The translations under genes were made by a program, and so were the position numbers. From IMG/VR virus record IMGVR_UViG_3300032167_006623: DNA of 64,000 bases. One strand, given 5' to 3'. Position 1 is the first letter of the stretch. Each line of letters starts with the position of its first letter. Under the pieces are notes generated by a model, which was not told the DNA's origin, did no database searches, and saw nothing but the letters and a program-made list of their open reading frames with translations. Source of the stretch: an uncultured virus (IMG/VR IMGVR_UViG_3300032167_006623). Lineage: Duplodnaviria; Heunggongvirae; Uroviricota; Caudoviricetes. Positions 4,696-44,699 of the stretch are shown here, in pieces.

Positions 4696-5064
4696 TTACA
4701 TATTATCGATAATTTGTTTATTATAATCTTTAATTTTGTCTGCAACGGTCTGATACAAATTGGGATAATCGTGTTTCATATCGCCATATATCCTGCCCAT
4801 TTGACCCCTGTTAACAACTGTTTGCTTATGTGTTCGAACATAAGAATAGGCAGAAAGATTAAGCTTGGGATATGCGCTTGGGTCAAGCGGAATATCATAA
4901 ATTACGTCAACTTTGCTTTTATCTGATACTTTTGAAACAGGAAGAACATTGTAATCGCCAATATCTGCTTGTGCTATAACCAAAGCAGGTCGAGATTTTA
5001 TTTTCATCTGATGTAATTTGGTATCGTAATACTGGGTAGAGATAGAGCAAATTTTTCCTATCAT
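4696..5064 (-). CDS. PemK/MazF-like toxin
   Basis: KSRPALVI and VLPVS motifs; translationally coupled to upstream Panacea antitoxin. Confidence 0.7.
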   Translation of the reverse strand: MIGKICSISTQYYDTKLHQMKIKSRPALVIAQADIGDYNVLPVSKVSDKSKVDVIYDIPLDPSAYPKLNLSAYSYVRTHKQTVVNRGQMGRIYGDMKHDYPNLYQTVADKIKDYNKQIIDNM

Positions 5065-5555
5065 GATGACACCTCTTCCGCATCATCAAATTCATCATAA
5101 TACATATCCCATACGCTATCATAGGGTCTTACTTTCTCGGCATCTTTTCTGATATCATCTAAAAGCAACTCTCTATTTCCGTTTTCTCCGTCTTTAAGTC
5201 CGACTCTTGAATTAAGCCATGATGTTTCTTTGTGTGTCAATTCGCTCAATTTCCATGCTTCAATAAAACTGTATTGAGCCATGATGTTATTAACAATATA
5301 TGCACTTTCATCTGATATAGGCTGCGTTTCGGCATAAATACCGTGTTCAGTATATGTGCCGCGAATAACCGGACAAACGGGTCCGTATTTCCAACCTTGC
5401 AACGGTTCATCAAACATAGGTCTGTTGAGCAATGCTAAACACTCACGCTGAGAAAAATATAATAATTTATGAAGCTTCATTTCGTCAATAACACAGCCTG
5501 ATTCTTTTTTATAAACATCAAAAATATACTGTGCAATATTCACTACTCGTTCCAT
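5061..5555 (-). CDS. Panacea-domain (DUF4065/SocA-like) antitoxin
   Basis: IAQYI...MKLHKLLYFSQ...GWKYGPVCP...LSELTHKETSW. Confidence 0.88.
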   Translation of the reverse strand: MERVVNIAQYIFDVYKKESGCVIDEMKLHKLLYFSQRECLALLNRPMFDEPLQGWKYGPVCPVIRGTYTEHGIYAETQPISDESAYIVNNIMAQYSFIEAWKLSELTHKETSWLNSRVGLKDGENGNRELLLDDIRKDAEKVRPYDSVWDMYYDEFDDAEEVSS

Positions 5556-5600
5556 AAAAACGCCCCTTTCTCAATATTATATTATGTTATCTTATAATAT

Positions 5601-5629
5601 ATTATAGCATAACACGGTCAATCTGTCAA
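5601..5629 (-). promoter_or_regulatory. sigmaA promoter of the TA operon
   Basis: Reverse strand TTGACA-N17-TATAAT with extended TG. Confidence 0.8.
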
Positions 5630-5733
5630 TAAAAAGAGCTCACAGATAGCCATTAATAACTCTCCCAAAATTCTCTTTTAATAATAAACAAAGAAATAAC
5701 TGTTCATGTTTTTTATTGATTTCTTCTCCCCTT

Positions 5734-5766
5734 TCCGTCCTGACAGACGGACGGATTGTCTTTAAA
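5734..5766 (+). promoter_or_regulatory. Hairpin-CGG-N9-AAA element
   Basis: TCCGTCC-TGAC-AGACGGA-CGGATTGTCTTTAAA (one mismatch in stem). Confidence 0.6.
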
Positions 5767-5819
5767 GTCAACGGTTAATATCATTTCCTGATTTTACAAG
5801 AAATATATTTCAAAATCTA

Positions 5820-5848
5820 TTGACAATATCCGATTTATCGGATATAAT
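5820..5848 (+). promoter_or_regulatory. sigmaA promoter with palindromic operator-like spacer
   Basis: TTGACA-N17-TATAAT; inverted repeat ATATCCGAT/ATCGGATAT across the spacer. Confidence 0.85.
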
Positions 5849-5880
5849 ATAAGTGAGGGAAATCCTCATCATCGCAGAAG

Positions 5881-5980
5881 ATGTTGTGTGACGGTTCTGA
5901 CACAACGTTAAAATAAAAATTGACCGTGCGTTGATGACGAGTGACGGTTCTGACTCGTCGGTAAAATAAAAATTGACCAA
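5881..5980 (+). ncRNA. tandem 53-nt pseudoknot repeats, type III antitoxin-like
   Basis: Two units with covarying stems, identical loop GACGGTTCTG and A-rich tail ending TGACC that can pair with the loop. Confidence 0.55.
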
Positions 5981-6016
5981 GTGATGATAACAAACGAAAA
6001 GAAAACATACTTATTG

Positions 6017-6047
6017 AGAGCCTTGATTTTATCAAGGCTCTTTCTTA
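6017..6047 (+). terminator. intrinsic terminator/attenuator before the HipA-like gene
   Basis: AGAGCCTTGAT-TTT-ATCAAGGCTCT followed by TTCTT. Confidence 0.75.
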
Positions 6048-6084
6048 CAATTAACATAAAAACAAACGCTTACACAGAAAGGAA

Positions 6085-7428
6085 GTGCCGAGGATGAAAG
6101 ACTTTAATTATACATTGATGCATAAAAATAAGACTGTTGCTCATTTATGTATGAATGAAACAAAAGGTAATATATCTAAAATATCTGACTTATTATCTGC
6201 TGAACATCTTCCTGTCGGCGTTCAACATAAAAATGCTGTCATTCTTTGTGCAAACCTTAACGAATGGTTCAAAGGACGTTCGATACCGGCGAGCCGTCAT
6301 GGTATTCAAAAGGTTCTTGACACACTGAACATAAGCACTCCTCAATTGATTCTTGAACATAGTTTTGGCTTAAGTTTATCAGACCAATATTGGATTAAAC
6401 CGACAAACAGTACCATTAACTGGAACGATGTTAATTTTTTCGAAAATGATTTTTCCGAAGATATGGGCGACCTTATGTTCGGAAACAAAAATTCAAATGA
6501 ATCATTAAATCTGTGTTCTCCGGACAATACGTCAGATGGTCAGCTGAAAAAACGTTGGAAAATAATTAACGGAAAAAGATGTTTGCTTAAAGCGGGACAT
6601 GACCCTTTTATGCAGCAGCCTTTTAATGAAGTAATTGCATCACAGCTAATGAGTAAATTAAACATACCTCATGTCACTTATGAGCTCGAATGGCAAAATG
6701 ATGAACCTTATAGCATATGTGAAGATTTCATTACAGCTGACACGGAATTAGTAAGTGCTTGGCAAGTTATGCATAGTAAAATGCGTTCAAATAACTGTAG
6801 TCCCTACAATCATTTTGTGAATATATGTGATGAAAATGGAATAAAAAATTGTAAACAAGCACTTGATGAAATGTTCGTACTTGATTATATTATAGCAAAC
6901 GAAGACCGTCATTTTAATAATTTTGGCATAATACGTGATGCAAACACTCTCGAATGGACAAGCATGGCTCCGATATTTGATAGTGGTTCTTCTTTAGGCT
7001 ATGATAAAATTGCTCAAAGACTTCATATCAATATTGAATGCAGACCGTTCAAAAGCACTCACGAAGAACAACTAAAACTCGTATCTTCATTCGATTGGCT
7101 CGACTTTTCAAAGTTAAACTCTATGACCAATGAAATAAATGATATTTTATCAGATGAAAAAGTCAAAACATATATTGATGATAATCGACGTAACGCAATT
7201 GTTAATTTTGTTGAAAATAGAATTCAACAGTTAGAATCTGTAGCTTTGTCAAGAAATAAGACAACAACTGTTGAAAAAACGTTTCTTAATGATGTCAATT
7301 ACTGCGGTGCGTCCAATCCAATTGAAAGAAGTGCTTCTTTAGGAGCAATAGCATCCGATTGCAACACAACAGACATTGCCAACAAATTATCTGAGTCAAG
7401 CAAACCGAAAACCAGATATGATGAATAA
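6085..7428 (+). CDS. HipA-family (HipA_C domain) Ser/Thr kinase
   Basis: SDGQLKK, NEVIAS, LDYIIANEDRHFNNFG, APIFDSGSSL kinase motifs. Confidence 0.85.
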   Translation: MPRMKDFNYTLMHKNKTVAHLCMNETKGNISKISDLLSAEHLPVGVQHKNAVILCANLNEWFKGRSIPASRHGIQKVLDTLNISTPQLILEHSFGLSLSDQYWIKPTNSTINWNDVNFFENDFSEDMGDLMFGNKNSNESLNLCSPDNTSDGQLKKRWKIINGKRCLLKAGHDPFMQQPFNEVIASQLMSKLNIPHVTYELEWQNDEPYSICEDFITADTELVSAWQVMHSKMRSNNCSPYNHFVNICDENGIKNCKQALDEMFVLDYIIANEDRHFNNFGIIRDANTLEWTSMAPIFDSGSSLGYDKIAQRLHINIECRPFKSTHEEQLKLVSSFDWLDFSKLNSMTNEINDILSDEKVKTYIDDNRRNAIVNFVENRIQQLESVALSRNKTTTVEKTFLNDVNYCGASNPIERSASLGAIASDCNTTDIANKLSESSKPKTRYDE

Positions 7429-7449
7429 TTGCAATGGTTAATATTATTT

Positions 7450-7536
7450 CCTGTATTTTCTGAAATCATAATTACTGATAAGCTTTCTGACACAGAGCAT
7501 GAGGCCGGCGATTTTGGCAGTACAGGTGTTAAGTAA
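7450..7536 (+). pseudogene. degenerate duplicate of the dut 3' end
   Basis: Near-identical to the last roughly 90 bp of dut (SDTExxxGxFGSTGVK*). Confidence 0.8.
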
Positions 7537-39066: not shown

Positions 39067-40347
39067 GTGCTATTATATAAATATATCAAAAAGGGGTTGA
39101 TTATCATAGCCAATAAAAAACACGATAAAGACCGAAATATTGTTCTTGCAAATAGAATAGGCGGTTCCAACATGGTTCAGATGGCACAATTGTTATATTA
39201 TCAATTAATAAATGCCAATCTGTCGTTAATTGAACTCAAACTGATTGATGTTTATTTATCCAGAATAAACAGTCACGACCCTTCTGCCAGAGAAGTCGTT
39301 TTCAAAAAAGGCGAGCTTGAAAAGCTTTTTGGAGTAAAACGGATACAAAATGAAGCTCTTCATAAGTATCTCGATGACCTTATGAAGCTCCACGTTATCA
39401 TATGCAGTGAAAAAGAAGATGATAATATGTACATAGCTCATAAACAAAGTTTTGCTATGTTTAATGAATTGTATATGATTCTGGATAAATCAGACGGTTT
39501 ATGGACAGTGCATATGAAATGCGGCGATGATGCAGCTGCTCTTATTTTTAATATAGACAAAATAGGTTATTTGCAGCATGCTGTGAAAAATACGGCTAAG
39601 TTATCAACCATACATAGTTTTATGATTTATAAGTTTATTGAAAGTCATAGAATGAATAATTTACCTTATCCGCAGACTTTTACTGTTCCCCTTGATGATT
39701 TACGTAAACAAGTTAATTGTATTGACAAATACTCTACATTCCGAGATTTTAATAAATATGTTCTCAAGGCGTCTCGTACAGAAATTTTTGAAAAAACCAC
39801 CACACGTTTTGATTATGAGCTTGTATATTCAGGCAGATTTGTATCCAAGATAAAATTTACAATTCATGCAAGAGTTTCTGACTCCCCTGCTCTTCCTGAT
39901 AATACTCTTCTTGATAATCCTGTACAAAAAGAAATGCTGCTTCCTGATAACACAATCATAACCGAACCAAACAGTGTGATATCGGAAGTATCTGACGATA
40001 CGTCTGTTCCACAGCATTATTATTATGGCAACAGTTATGACTATGATGAACAGAGAAAGACTGAAAATCCTTCGGATTCATCGGAAATACCCAATACTAC
40101 AATAGCCGCTCTTGCTGCAGCCTGTAAAAATGAGTTTTCTCCCGGTCAAATGAAGGCTATTCTTAAGATTTTGTTATATTATTCTCTTGATGAATACGAA
40201 TTATTCAATTATCTTGAAAAAAAATATATCAGATTCGAAATGAAAGCTGAGGAAACTGTTATTAAAAATCGATTCAAATATTTTTACACGATGATTGACA
40301 ATGACAGAGAACAAGGCATTCTTGACGAAACTTTTCTTCAAATATAA
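39067..40347 (+). CDS. plasmid replication initiator, Rep_3/RepB family (start uncertain)
   Basis: LSLIELKLID, SFMIYKFI, VPLDDLRK, YSTFRDFNKYVLK, GRFVSKIKF motifs; directly follows iterons. Confidence 0.85.
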   Translation: MLLYKYIKKGLIIIANKKHDKDRNIVLANRIGGSNMVQMAQLLYYQLINANLSLIELKLIDVYLSRINSHDPSAREVVFKKGELEKLFGVKRIQNEALHKYLDDLMKLHVIICSEKEDDNMYIAHKQSFAMFNELYMILDKSDGLWTVHMKCGDDAAALIFNIDKIGYLQHAVKNTAKLSTIHSFMIYKFIESHRMNNLPYPQTFTVPLDDLRKQVNCIDKYSTFRDFNKYVLKASRTEIFEKTTTRFDYELVYSGRFVSKIKFTIHARVSDSPALPDNTLLDNPVQKEMLLPDNTIITEPNSVISEVSDDTSVPQHYYYGNSYDYDEQRKTENPSDSSEIPNTTIAALAAACKNEFSPGQMKAILKILLYYSLDEYELFNYLEKKYIRFEMKAEETVIKNRFKYFYTMIDNDREQGILDETFLQI

Positions 40348-40604
40348 TATTTTTCATGGCTCTTGATATTATTTCAAGAGCCTGTTTTTATAATGTCTGT
40401 CGTAAACGACAGACGGTTTTCTGCCAAATCGTTATCAGATATGACGAAAACCCGATTATTACCATTATTTTTATCGGAAAATGCTTGACACAAGTGTTAT
40501 TGCGTGATATAATCAGATATATGAGATTACACTCATAAATGAGGATAATCTGCAATAACCAAACGTATATGATGACGAAAATTAAGACAAAGGAGTTTTT
40601 AACC

Positions 40605-42779
40605 ATGAGAAAGACAAGAAAGTCCGCAACAAGGTCTATTGCGGCCATTGCAGCTGCCACACTTATGGCAACATCAATGCTCGGTTCCACAGTATCCGCA
40701 TTTAACCCGTATTATACGGGCGACCCGTTTGATTACACCTTGAACTATAACTACAATAATGGTTCTTGGACTACTCCGGGTTACACAAATACCTCAAATA
40801 CGACTACGACAAGTACAAACAGCGGTAACAGCGTTTCTACTGTGCAGATGCCACAGCAGATTTATATGACTGTTTATGACTCAGGTCCTGCTCTGAGATA
40901 CAGCAGAGCCACATCTGTTATCTCAGCAGCCGAAGGCTTGCTCAGTAATATTGACAGTGCATCGCTTGGTCTCCCTGCTCCTACTTTCGCAGGTGTACAG
41001 CTCAGAATCGGCAGCACAAGCTACGATTATCTTATCGAACCTAATGCCGAAAATGATGCTACCGTACTCACATTCAACTCTTCGGCTAATCTTAAGTCAG
41101 GTATGTCCAAGATTAAGAAAGAAGAACAGGCTATCATGGATGCAGCTCTTGCTCCATATGTAAATTATATTGATTCTGTAATCAAGAGCGGCTCTTATAC
41201 TAAGGTAAATCAGGAAGATGATGCGTCCGTTAAGGCTGCAAAGCTGAGTAACTCTGCTATTCTCACAGCCATCAAGAGTGCTCTGACTTACACTTATACA
41301 GACCTTGACCTGTTCTCAGGTGACGTTACCGGCGATATCAAGACATATCAGATTGCTTATCTGTCCAAGGCTTCTGTTGGTAATTCTTCCACACAGACCG
41401 TTGTTTCCAACGATGAGGAATTTACCAACTTTCCAAGACTTATCATCGACGGTCAGATTACTGACTGGGGCAGCGTAAATCATCTTGACATCTTCAATAA
41501 TTCCAACAATTCTTGGTGGTATGCGCTCAAGGATGGTCATACTCTCAACAATGACTTCTATTGGCTCAAGGGTATGATGATTCCTGATTTCGAAGATTCT
41601 ATTTCTTTTGACGCTTATGCCGGAACTGAATGGAAGCAGTATGGCTCCGTTGCAACAGGCGGTGGTGCATCTTACGACGACGATGATGATGATACATCCG
41701 ATAACAATCCTACAAACACCAGCATTTTCTACTACAATAAGGCTTACAACTATGCTTCCGATAATGTGTATGCTGTAAAGCTTAACGGCTACATCGTTTA
41801 TTACCCGAACATTGACTACGCTAAGGCTGCTTGTCAGACTGATTCCGAAGCATATATCACACAGGTATATTCTTCTAATCACAGCTCTTCCAGACCTTAT
41901 TTCTGCTTTGTAAACGGCAACTATTATGCGTCTGTATCTGAAAGCCCGTATCCTAACTACACTTTCTATATGTCCAACATTGATGCACCTTCTAACGGCG
42001 GTGCTTACAATTATTACATTCATGACGGTGTAGTTTACACTACTCAGGGCAAGGCTGTCGGTGACGCTGATGACAGAGGTTACAGCCGCTACAATACATG
42101 GTTCTGTACAACAGACGGTCGTTTCTACCCTTCTGCTCAGACAGGCAAGAGCGGTTACTACGTTAATACATCCGATATGAACTATATCGATGAAAACGAC
42201 CCTTATTATCAGTATTGGATGATGCGTATTCAGATGCTTGAGCAGGAGCTCGCTAATCAGAAGAATAACAACTCCAAGCCTGATAAGGATACATCCTCAA
42301 GCAGTTCTTCAAGCAAGACAGACAAGACTGAAATCATCTCCGATGACAATCTCGCATATGTTTCTGCTGAAACACTGGCTGCACTCAGAGCAAGCGGCGA
42401 AACACTTGAAATTACTACAGGTAATAAGGCTGTTTGGTCAATCTGCGGCGATAACGTAAAGACACCGAGAGACGTAAATCTCCGTGTTACTTACAATACA
42501 AAGAACATCCCTGATTCCCTCAAGAAGACTCTTACATCCAAGAGTGATGTTGTAGCATCTTCTCAGGTGACAATCGGCGAAAATCTTGAATGGGGTATGA
42601 ATGCTTCTATGACCATCAAGTTCAATGCAAAGAGAGCTAATTTCATTGCTAAGCTTTACCGTTATGACACCAAGACAAACTCGCTTGTATATATAAATAC
42701 TGCGACTATCGGCAATACAGGTAAGGTTACATTCAATAACCTTGACCATGGCGGCGATTATCTCATCACTCTTGGTTAA
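40605..42779 (+). CDS. secreted/surface protein
   Basis: Signal peptide, Tyr/Asn/Ser-rich, C-terminal LDHGGDYLIT domain; consensus promoter 40485-40513; terminators downstream. Confidence 0.8.
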   Translation: MRKTRKSATRSIAAIAAATLMATSMLGSTVSAFNPYYTGDPFDYTLNYNYNNGSWTTPGYTNTSNTTTTSTNSGNSVSTVQMPQQIYMTVYDSGPALRYSRATSVISAAEGLLSNIDSASLGLPAPTFAGVQLRIGSTSYDYLIEPNAENDATVLTFNSSANLKSGMSKIKKEEQAIMDAALAPYVNYIDSVIKSGSYTKVNQEDDASVKAAKLSNSAILTAIKSALTYTYTDLDLFSGDVTGDIKTYQIAYLSKASVGNSSTQTVVSNDEEFTNFPRLIIDGQITDWGSVNHLDIFNNSNNSWWYALKDGHTLNNDFYWLKGMMIPDFEDSISFDAYAGTEWKQYGSVATGGGASYDDDDDDTSDNNPTNTSIFYYNKAYNYASDNVYAVKLNGYIVYYPNIDYAKAACQTDSEAYITQVYSSNHSSSRPYFCFVNGNYYASVSESPYPNYTFYMSNIDAPSNGGAYNYYIHDGVVYTTQGKAVGDADDRGYSRYNTWFCTTDGRFYPSAQTGKSGYYVNTSDMNYIDENDPYYQYWMMRIQMLEQELANQKNNNSKPDKDTSSSSSSSKTDKTEIISDDNLAYVSAETLAALRASGETLEITTGNKAVWSICGDNVKTPRDVNLRVTYNTKNIPDSLKKTLTSKSDVVASSQVTIGENLEWGMNASMTIKFNAKRANFIAKLYRYDTKTNSLVYINTATIGNTGKVTFNNLDHGGDYLITLG

Positions 42780-42887
42780 TCTCATATAAACCCCTTTGGA
42801 GAAACACGGTTGTCACAACCGTGTTTTTCTTTTTCTTGAAAAATAAAAAAGCAGTCAAAAATGACTGCTTTTTGTTTTACTTGATTA

Positions 42888-43421
42888 CTAAAATGGAAAA
42901 GTCGAATCATCTATATCGCTCAAATGCTGTTTTGCCTCGTTTGCTGTCTTTTTTATGAACTTGGACATTTCATATGATGACAACCACTTGGCTAAAAATT
43001 TCACCATAGCATCCTGAATGTTGTTGAATGTCCAACCGCCCTTTAATGCTGTCAGAAATTCTTCAATTGACGTATTTTCGTCCATATTACAACATTCAAC
43101 GGCAAAATTGAAGTTAAGACCGTTTAACGTGTCTATAAATTCCTTTGTGATTATAGACTGCATTCGGTGCTTTTCTTCATAACTATTGTGCTCGGTATAC
43201 CACGTTTCCTCTTCCGTTTCTGTCATGAAAACTCTGATTGTTCCACCGCCCATAAATTTAATATAATACGGTAATTCGTCAATATTATAGTCGGCTGCGG
43301 GGTCTCGTTCGTATTCGGCGTCTCTATTTTCGCATACTTGTCTGTCACGTTCTAAACGTCTGTCAATGCTGCAAACTGCGGTGTCGTATGATTCTGACAT
43401 GCTTTCAAAGTCAATGCCCAT
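42888..43421 (-). CDS. hypothetical protein
   Basis: AAGGAG RBS; ends DIDDSTFPF. Confidence 0.7.
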   Translation of the reverse strand: MGIDFESMSESYDTAVCSIDRRLERDRQVCENRDAEYERDPAADYNIDELPYYIKFMGGGTIRVFMTETEEETWYTEHNSYEEKHRMQSIITKEFIDTLNGLNFNFAVECCNMDENTSIEEFLTALKGGWTFNNIQDAMVKFLAKWLSSYEMSKFIKKTANEAKQHLSDIDDSTFPF

Positions 43422-43490
43422 AATACGAACTCCTTTTGCATTTATTTAAAATCAAGTCTGCAAGACTTTGCAGCCCTGCAGACTTGTATT

Positions 43491-44699
43491 TTACTTGCGT
43501 GACGCTAACTGGAAAAGACCTTCTCTGTTCAAGAATCTTGAATATCTGGAGTCAAGATACATAATCGGGAATTCATCACCTGCTGAGAAACTCTTAGCTG
43601 CCTGAATAAGTGCAGGATAAAGCTGTTCTCTAAGAGGACTTGCTCCACCGCCATATACATAAACAACTTCAATCTGACCGTTAGCCTTGTTGAGAATACG
43701 AGTAAATTCCTTAACAATTGCATCTACGAGTGTCATAGACTCTGCATTTACAATTGCAACTGCGTTGTCATACTTATGACGCTTCAGTGCAGATGGTGTA
43801 CACTGCAGAAATTCGCCGAGAGATTTTCTGTCATGGAATACATTGTTTGCTGCCTGCAATGGAGCCAATGAATTTTCAAGCACTGTACCATAACCGCTTG
43901 AAATATTCGCAGAGAAATCAGTATTAAACTGAGTACCTGTAAATACAGGGAAATTAACAGTTCCCTCTCCTATGTCAATACCGAGAGTACCTGTTGCTTC
44001 GATGATATCCTTCGCTGTGATACCCTCAAGCTTAATGCCGTTTGCACGCACGTCCTTAAGCAATGCATCCATAAACTTTTCGCCCTTGGATACAATAGCA
44101 ACCTGTGCTGAAGCACCTTCTGCAATAACTGACACTCTTTCGAACTTAATTTCGACCCTTACAGGTGTTTCGAAATTATGGAAGCATACAAAATGTGATG
44201 CCTTTGTAAATCCCTCAGAAAAACGGTCCCTGTAAGATTTGAACTCAGTAATAGGCAATGCAAGAGCCGTCTTCGACTCAACATGAAGTGTATCTGTCGG
44301 CAAAGCCTTGTTTGTTCTGTAGTAATTCTGCAAAGCTGCGCTTGCAATAATACTGAGAACAAGAACTGCAGACAAAGGCTGTTCTGCTTTGGACTTATGA
44401 CCATCGATATCGAACACTGCAATGGATTTACCGCTTTCAACACCTCTGCGTCCGAGATAAGAACGTGTTGTAGCAAAAATACCTGTTACGAGAGGACTAT
44501 CGAAAGTCACATTTGCTCTGTTAAAAATATCCTCGATTTCAGCTGCTACATCAATTACAGCCAAATCTGTAGGATTTGCAACTGTAGCTACACAGCTTGG
44601 AATGTCGATATTTACGTTATCAGCGTCGTTTGTCTTGGTTGCACCCTTGACATAGCCATTTCCTATATCAAGACCTGCATTGATTTTAATCTTATTCAT
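43491..44699 (-). CDS. parM: ParM/StbA actin-like partition ATPase
   Basis: LDIGNGYVK, IAEGASA, IDIGEGTVN, YGGGA actin-fold motifs. Confidence 0.9.
   Translation of the reverse strand: MNKIKINAGLDIGNGYVKGATKTNDADNVNIDIPSCVATVANPTDLAVIDVAAEIEDIFNRANVTFDSPLVTGIFATTRSYLGRRGVESGKSIAVFDIDGHKSKAEQPLSAVLVLSIIASAALQNYYRTNKALPTDTLHVESKTALALPITEFKSYRDRFSEGFTKASHFVCFHNFETPVRVEIKFERVSVIAEGASAQVAIVSKGEKFMDALLKDVRANGIKLEGITAKDIIEATGTLGIDIGEGTVNFPVFTGTQFNTDFSANISSGYGTVLENSLAPLQAANNVFHDRKSLGEFLQCTPSALKRHKYDNAVAIVNAESMTLVDAIVKEFTRILNKANGQIEVVYVYGGGASPLREQLYPALIQAAKSFSAGDEFPIMYLDSRYSRFLNREGLFQLASRK

Follow-up and report, generated by a model that had tools for sequence, protein, structure and literature searches.

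Operons of the tenpIN type, known from Photorhabdus luminescens, Enterobacteriaceae, Firmicutes and phages, consist of a promoter, a leader, two non-identical repeats of ~53 nucleotides (nt) that form A-rich H-type pseudoknots, a terminator and the gene for the endoribonuclease TenpN. According to published work, TenpI repeats are 39–57 nt long (mean 50.9) and occur in 1.9–3.0 copies (PMC3401426, Table 2), either of the two non-identical repeats alone rescues TenpN toxicity, and in the solved TenpI, an H-type pseudoknot, stem 1 receives A-minor contacts from the long A-rich loop (PMC13682666); properties of TenpIN are also given in section 18 of PMC12283969. Toxin-less type III repeats have been described on a mobile element as well, in the Pectobacterium phage PhiTE, which escapes ToxIN with pseudo-ToxI repeats (PMC3475682) presumed to neutralise the toxin of another replicon. 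Here we analyse positions 5820–7428 of a 64,000-nt stretch of DNA, the whole of which we call the window, from an uncultured virus (IMG/VR record IMGVR_UViG_3300032167_006623; Caudoviricetes), where an array of two TenpI-class repeats with promoter, leader and terminator is followed not by TenpN but by a kinase gene with a HipA_C domain.

The account that we favour, and consider fairly probable, is that this toxin-less TenpI array, carried by a mobile element, neutralises TenpN in trans. Full-text literature searches found no description of orphan TenpI arrays, and paper supplements may list such loci; the words orphan, decoy or mimic do not appear in the main text of PMC12283969, nor do orphan or solitary in that of PMC3401426. 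A further parallel (10.1101/2024.07.11.602962) is that of the orphan DarG-like antitoxins of T4-like phages, where the antitoxin half also stands alone on a mobile element, as proteins there and as an RNA array here.

Organization of the repeat array

A first-pass annotation, made from the letters of the window alone, had listed a consensus promoter, two 53-nt units, a terminator and a HipA-family kinase with no adjacent HipB or helix-turn-helix (HTH) gene, and all of these proved correct. The features of the array, with coordinates in the window, are as follows.

5820–5848, + strand: sigma-70 promoter of the array (TTGACA, 17 nt, TATAAT), 12 of 12 consensus matches
5855–5876, + strand: leader, a small predicted hairpin (5855–5867) and then CATCATCGC, from folding and from alignment with four TenpI-array loci
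5880–5932, + strand: TenpI-class unit 1, with stem 1 (S1) at 5883–5889/5900–5906, stem 2 (S2) at 5892–5896/5922–5926 and A-rich loop at 5907–5921
5933–5985, + strand: TenpI-class unit 2, with S1 at 5936–5942/5953–5959, S2 at 5946–5949/5975–5978 and A-rich loop at 5960–5974
6017–6046, + strand: intrinsic terminator-like hairpin with a TTCTT tail, an 11-base pair (bp) perfect inverted repeat (6017–6027/6031–6041) with a 3-nt loop

The two units, arranged head to tail and 79% identical, each comprise a 7-bp S1, a 10-nt loop GACGGTTCTG (5890–5899 in unit 1, 5943–5952 in unit 2), a 15-nt A-rich strand and GACC (5922–5925 and 5975–5978 respectively). The annotation had remarked that the stems differ yet pair, that loop and A-rich tail are invariant and that the loop can pair with GACC, and our analysis confirmed each of these points. 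Loop and tail (AAAATAAAAATTGACC) are the same in both units; S1 differs between them and is self-paired in each (GTTGTGT/ACACAAC in unit 1, GACGAGT/ACTCGTC in unit 2); and CGGTT in the loop is complementary to GACCG. Unit 1 could thus form five pseudoknot pairs; unit 2 could form four, having lost the fifth through replacement of the G behind GACC by an A.

The predicted fold of the RNA from 5855 to 6055 has an energy of −58 kcal/mol (z = −5.4), and none of 200 shuffles was equally stable. In addition, CATCATCG in the leader (5868–5876) is predicted to pair with GTGATGAT (5981–5988) right after unit 2, a single helix that would enclose the array. TCGC in the leader and GCGA/GTGA behind each unit are kept in TenpIN operons, and these motifs, with the pairing of leader and post-unit segment, may be relevant to processing. 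Unit 2 is separated by 30 nt from the terminator, which a simple terminator scan does not list because its 8-nt tail holds only four T.

Relationship of the repeats to TenpI arrays

An Rfam scan of 5500–6300 at E up to 10 matched the units to no family. A scan of viral contigs with the exact pattern of loop plus tail gave 28 loci, and metagenomes, searched for a pair of loops separated by one unit length, gave 80 loci from at least 117 matching stretches. Among the 80 listed metagenome loci, 57 are true two-unit arrays and 23 are unrelated coding sequences or simple repeats. A TenpN homologue starts ~0–155 nt past the array in 45 of the 57. Counting just the 54 arrays whose contigs continue for 700 nt or more, the figure is 45 of 54; the contigs of the other three end no more than 30 nt past the array. 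In two viral loci (L018 and L022), likewise, a TenpN open reading frame (ORF) comes after a promoter, a pair of such units and a terminator; the two ORFs score 152 and 163 bits against NCBIfam NF047358 ('type III toxin-antitoxin system TenpIN family toxin'; cut-off 90). All 16 array-linked ORFs tested, these two and 14 others, were above the cut-off (145.9–172.7 bits). As a separate observation, in L174 (401–1306) and in L132 TenpN is fused to a C-terminal C-GCAxxG-C-C family domain, in proteins of 302 and 310 amino acids (aa).

Resemblance to these operons extends beyond the units. Positions 5801–5987 of the window, which include the promoter, the leader and both units, are 80% identical over 194 nt to the TenpIN operon L018, and the −10 box, the position of the leader hairpin and an invariant TCGC are common to the window and L018, L022, L146 and L149, with TenpN found in three of the four. 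Alignment with other loci reaches ~5996–6002 and in no case passes 6002, and in the same locus alignments the terminator and the DNA downstream of it show no homology to TenpIN loci.

For comparison at the level of single positions we used 53 distinct units from 47 TenpN-linked arrays. At positions conserved in at least 95% of them, unit 1 shows no change and unit 2 a single one, G to A after GACC, the remaining differences being compensatory stem changes or lying in the variable linker. The covariance model R1 scored 81.1 bits on unit 2 (E ~1e-17, E-values being rough). In the alignment to the covariance model of 66 matches (58 distinct), both partners have changed at six of the seven S1 pairs, and pairing holds in 97.5% of cells; no shuffle and no slid register came near the observed pairing. 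S2 is invariant in this alignment because the search patterns fixed the loop. Independent support for S2 comes from variant units that lie just upstream of canonical ones in some phages: these keep GGTAAAATAA, the start of the A-rich strand, and have an S2 that is different yet complementary, CTAACT with AGTTAG in L002 and L021 (L021:2931–2981; − strand in L002) and TAGTCT with AGACTA in the L001 group (read by eye; L001 at about 2930–2985). Phages with both variant and canonical units may possess decoys against TenpN proteins of differing specificity.

With two repeats of 53 nt the window array falls inside the published TenpI range, and computationally its units are predicted to form the H-type pseudoknot of TenpI, with covariation in S1 and a complementary S2. 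On these sequence comparisons we conclude that they belong to the TenpI class of antitoxin units and are homologous to the TenpN-linked arrays. The annotation had described type III antitoxin-like pseudoknot repeats in the canonical layout with no ToxN, CptN or TenpN gene behind them, a description that was borne out, the homologues being TenpI.

The missing toxin and the kinase gene

We detected no TenpN in the 64-kb window (tblastn with two TenpN queries, best E 0.64). The gene after the terminator has no match to the NCBIfam TenpIN family, and the locus is not a complete tenpIN operon. What stands in the place of TenpN is the following gene.

6094–7428, + strand: HipA_C/CtkA-like serine-threonine kinase gene, 444 aa (Pfam PF07804, 41.4 bits against a cut-off of 30.5, E 1.6e-10)

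The HipA_C catalytic domain is common to this kinase, to HipA of hipBA and to CtkA of Helicobacter pylori, the last being its sole solved relative by profile search (3akj, E 2.4e-10). D271, H273, N276 and D296, invariant across 21 aligned family members, are kept and are taken as the putative catalytic residues; the last ~60 residues (from ~385) lie outside the stretch matched in most homologues. The protein also matches the candidate defence protein PADLOC PDC-M03A (E 1.1e-21). It differs from HipA in that no HTH or HipB gene is adjacent to it or present in the window, HipB being absent also from 87 homologue loci, and in that no Couple_hipA N-terminal domain was reported by Pfam at E up to 1, a search in which HMMER filtering could conceal a very weak match.

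Homologues of the kinase form a very large family of more than 6,628 proteins at E up to 0.001, at ~55% identity or less apart from one 99% twin. Blastn of 5700–7500 against phage GenBank gave just two weak partial matches, both inside the kinase gene. We fetched 90 homologue loci (80 from genomes and 10 viral), of which 87 had a strong kinase match. The annotation had suggested checking whether kinase homologues keep the repeats upstream, and they are absent: R1 found TenpI-class units at none of the 90 loci, its best E being 2.2 against ~1e-17 in the window. Tandem Repeats Finder (TRF) proved insensitive upstream of the homologues, missing even the array of the window, and we added a pseudoknot descriptor scan, by which none of the 86 homologues scanned was convincingly preceded by a tandem pseudoknot-like repeat. 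Tandem descriptor matches in L040, L044 and L069 were not repeats on inspection. A 51-nt GC-rich tandem repeat unlike TenpI (5.9 copies, 93% matches) lies upstream of a homologue from Cohnella faecalis (L102, ~2536–2834). No gene family is common to the neighbourhoods of more than seven of the 87 loci; since the kinase family has no conserved neighbour in them, the absence of HipB is normal for the family and not peculiar to the window. The kinase does not travel with a TenpI-like RNA or a similar one, and it is probably a passenger, an accessory gene with no relation to the array, from a large family whose members stand alone.

Toxin-less arrays at other loci

Nine of the 54 informative arrays among the listed metagenome loci, belonging to four sequence families and each with 741–2,475 nt of downstream sequence, are not accompanied by TenpN. 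One (L157) is followed by a co-oriented serine resolvase; two (L163 and L186) face a convergent PIN plus Phd/YefM pair; five (L153, L155, L164, L181 and L187) lie in GC-rich chromosome-like DNA, with a phosphoribosyltransferase gene on one side and a convergent penicillin-binding protein gene on the other; and L149 faces a convergent gene of no known family. In L155 and its relatives the array is complete, with terminator.

Of the 28 viral loci, 26 are without TenpN in the 3 kb to either side. Toxin-less two-unit arrays occur in L016 and L024, and the other toxin-less viral loci have single canonical units. In the L003 group (eight loci) the unit lies between tRNA genes (L003:935–991), and in the L002 group (four loci) a variant and a canonical unit directly precede a tRNA array, the canonical ones mapping to L002:2993–3049 (− strand) and L021:2988–3044, with seven tRNAs after the unit in L021. 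This placement suggests that TenpI-class units in or before phage tRNA arrays are co-transcribed with the tRNAs. In the L001 group (ten loci) a variant and a canonical unit lie ahead of a small membrane-protein gene. L024 also has, on the strand opposite to its two-unit array and ~400 nt from it, a FuFi-1 RNA (2291–2546, + strand; Rfam RF02986, 59.8 bits against a cut-off of 59.6).

Related contigs in gut metagenomes

The stretch occurs in gut and faecal metagenomes of ~15 studies, and contigs of four gut metagenome runs were compared with the locus. In contigs of runs X6 and X12, unit 2 and the kinase gene are continuous (5949–7365), with 0–4 differences. A contig of run X18 covers 5728–6410 with exactly one unit deleted (53 nt, skipping 5887–5941), and its terminator has AAA for TTT in the loop and one A to G change in the stem, with pairing retained.

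In the four runs the array (5868–6001) was covered at a summed contig depth ~4 to 16 times as high as the kinase gene, and many contigs diverge into unlike sequence at 5856, 5887, 5936 and 5987; both observations indicate that other arrays of the same class coexist in those communities, where potential targets of the array would thus be present. Contigs of runs X6 and X12 also join 5997 to 7297, which connects the array's end with the final 130 nt of the kinase gene, with sides of only 30–32 nt, and others join 7430 to 5761 through 33 inserted letters, linking the kinase stop to a copy of the array promoter region. These joints hint at mosaic relatives.

A possible orphan antitoxin and the alternatives

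The annotation had offered three inferences, an RNA-neutralised or RNA-gated kinase, an orphan antitoxin decoy against type III toxins and a tandem riboswitch or attenuator, of which the decoy is the best supported. The locus would then be the non-coding half of a tenpIN operon (promoter, leader, two pseudoknot units and terminator) without the TenpN gene. From its consensus promoter it would yield abundant array RNA, each unit of which would fold into an H-type pseudoknot with a 7-bp S1, an S2 of CGGUU with GACCG, and the 15-nt A-rich strand along S1. A TenpN made elsewhere in the cell, from the host chromosome, a prophage or a rival plasmid, would cut the precursor into units and then be locked in an inactive RNA–protein complex, and the element would thus be shielded from TenpN-based abortive infection or from post-segregational killing by TenpIN-bearing rivals. 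The binding, the neutralisation and the benefit are what we infer: given the conserved sequence, the perfect promoter and the compensatory stems, the simplest reading is that the array has kept the ability to bind TenpN, in which case the TenpN would have to be made by a different replicon, and an array that binds a toxin of another replicon is an orphan antitoxin. The kinase gene would have been brought in by recombination just past unit 2, at ~5990–6002, and since it lies behind the terminator its expression probably depends on read-through.

PhiTE provides the closest precedent. Repeat number varies in both cases, with one or two units here (one in X18) and expansion in PhiTE escape mutants (PMC3475682). 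The PhiTE repeats are of the ToxI family, whereas those of the window are of the TenpI class and keep the full operon promoter, leader and terminator, their function being read from sequence.

Several observations weigh against a trans-acting orphan antitoxin. The kinase gene is co-oriented with the array, 47 nt past the terminator and in the toxin position, with a ribosome-binding site and a promoter-like site of its own that is weak (6023–6051, 9 of 12 matches). Array and kinase are linked in near-identical variants of several metagenomes, so that a functional link between them may exist. Besides the conserved G lost from unit 2, the linker of unit 1 is GTGCGTT, compared with the common GAGCGAA/GAGTGAT, and this could impair processing if the TenpN cleavage site lies there. 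None of the sequencing runs containing the stretch is recorded as RNA. Finally, since the search patterns allowed just this loop, the counts of related loci cover a single TenpI class.

The strongest competing explanation, which we nevertheless regard as unlikely, is that the array is an inert relic: a tenpIN operon would have lost its toxin by recombination and received the kinase cassette in its place, and the array, without any present role, would be intact only since the event was recent. The homology break just past unit 2 and the mosaic joints at 5997 and 7430 fit this history, as does the X18 variant, already one unit short, and among the loci examined the array–kinase arrangement is confined to a near-identical lineage. 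However, nearly all positions conserved in functional arrays are kept, the two stems differ by compensatory changes alone, and the promoter is a perfect consensus. Moreover, toxin-less arrays with promoter and terminator have arisen independently in at least four metagenome families and in most viral loci, which decay alone hardly explains.

A still less probable role, compatible with an orphan antitoxin acting in trans, is that of a co-opted leader, in which array and terminator would dampen transcription of the kinase in cis with no binding of the RNA to the kinase. The position of the kinase 47 nt past the terminator, its ribosome-binding site and the weakness of its own promoter-like site agree with such a role, and at type III loci the terminator sets the antitoxin/toxin ratio (PMC3401426). 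Yet the terminator would suffice for this and two conserved pseudoknots are not required, nor is there a comparable leader at the 87 kinase homologue loci.

We think it very improbable that RNA and kinase form a pair in which TenpI-like pseudoknots bind and inactivate, or gate, the HipA/CtkA-like kinase until the RNA decays. If they did, the locus would be a type III-style toxin–antitoxin or defence module in which a protein kinase takes the place of the endoribonuclease as toxin. In favour of this, the order of elements matches a type III locus exactly and puts a toxin-type kinase where the toxin belongs, the kinase matches a candidate defence protein family, no protein antitoxin lies nearby, and variants from several metagenomes, one of them with a single unit, retain array and kinase together. 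The comparative evidence gives this pairing no support: as described above, units are missing from all the homologue loci and nothing similar precedes the homologues, the lack of a neighbouring antitoxin is usual in the family, and the RNA keeps the positions of TenpN-linked arrays, that is, a TenpN-binding unit sequence. Type III assembly (ToxIN, CptIN, TenpIN) also requires a processing of the units that a kinase cannot perform.

A tandem riboswitch or attenuator sensing a small molecule is extremely improbable. Hairpin, A-rich tail and pseudoknot resemble small riboswitch aptamers such as preQ1-I and a terminator follows the units, but these match nothing in Rfam at E up to 10, identical units serve TenpN operons, and where single units lie inside tRNA arrays there is no gene behind them that they could regulate.

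This locus and its relatives suggest that mobile elements of the gut often carry toxin-less TenpI arrays that are complete, or single units placed in phage tRNA arrays, which points to RNA decoys as a routine counter-defence or anti-addiction device. The locus also calls for caution in annotation: a promoter–repeats–terminator signature is no proof that the next gene is its toxin.

Genomic neighbourhood of the array

Outside the array, a neighbouring gene with an antitoxin-like product is divergent from it.

5061–5555, − strand: SocA/Panacea-domain antitoxin-like gene (PF13274, E 8.3e-15)

Its promoter (5629–5601) matches the consensus at 12 of 12 positions and has a TG extension. The gene overlaps by 4 nt a downstream 122-aa ORF without family match (4696–5064, − strand), with which it shares the promoter, and the pair (4696–5555) is a candidate PanA-type toxin–antitoxin. 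TenpI units were found in none of 45 viral loci with Panacea-domain homologues, and no viral relative was found of a 278-aa neighbour protein.

Mobile-element genes in the window include those for a dUTPase, an M15 peptidase, a replication initiator and an actin-like partition protein, along with very large orphan ORFs, and the element, of low GC content, is probably a phage or phage-plasmid. The replication initiator-like gene (phrog_4402) and the gene for the actin-like partition protein (ALP_N, MreB-like_C) lie together at 39067–44699, beside orphan ORFs of 1,453 and 2,055 aa.

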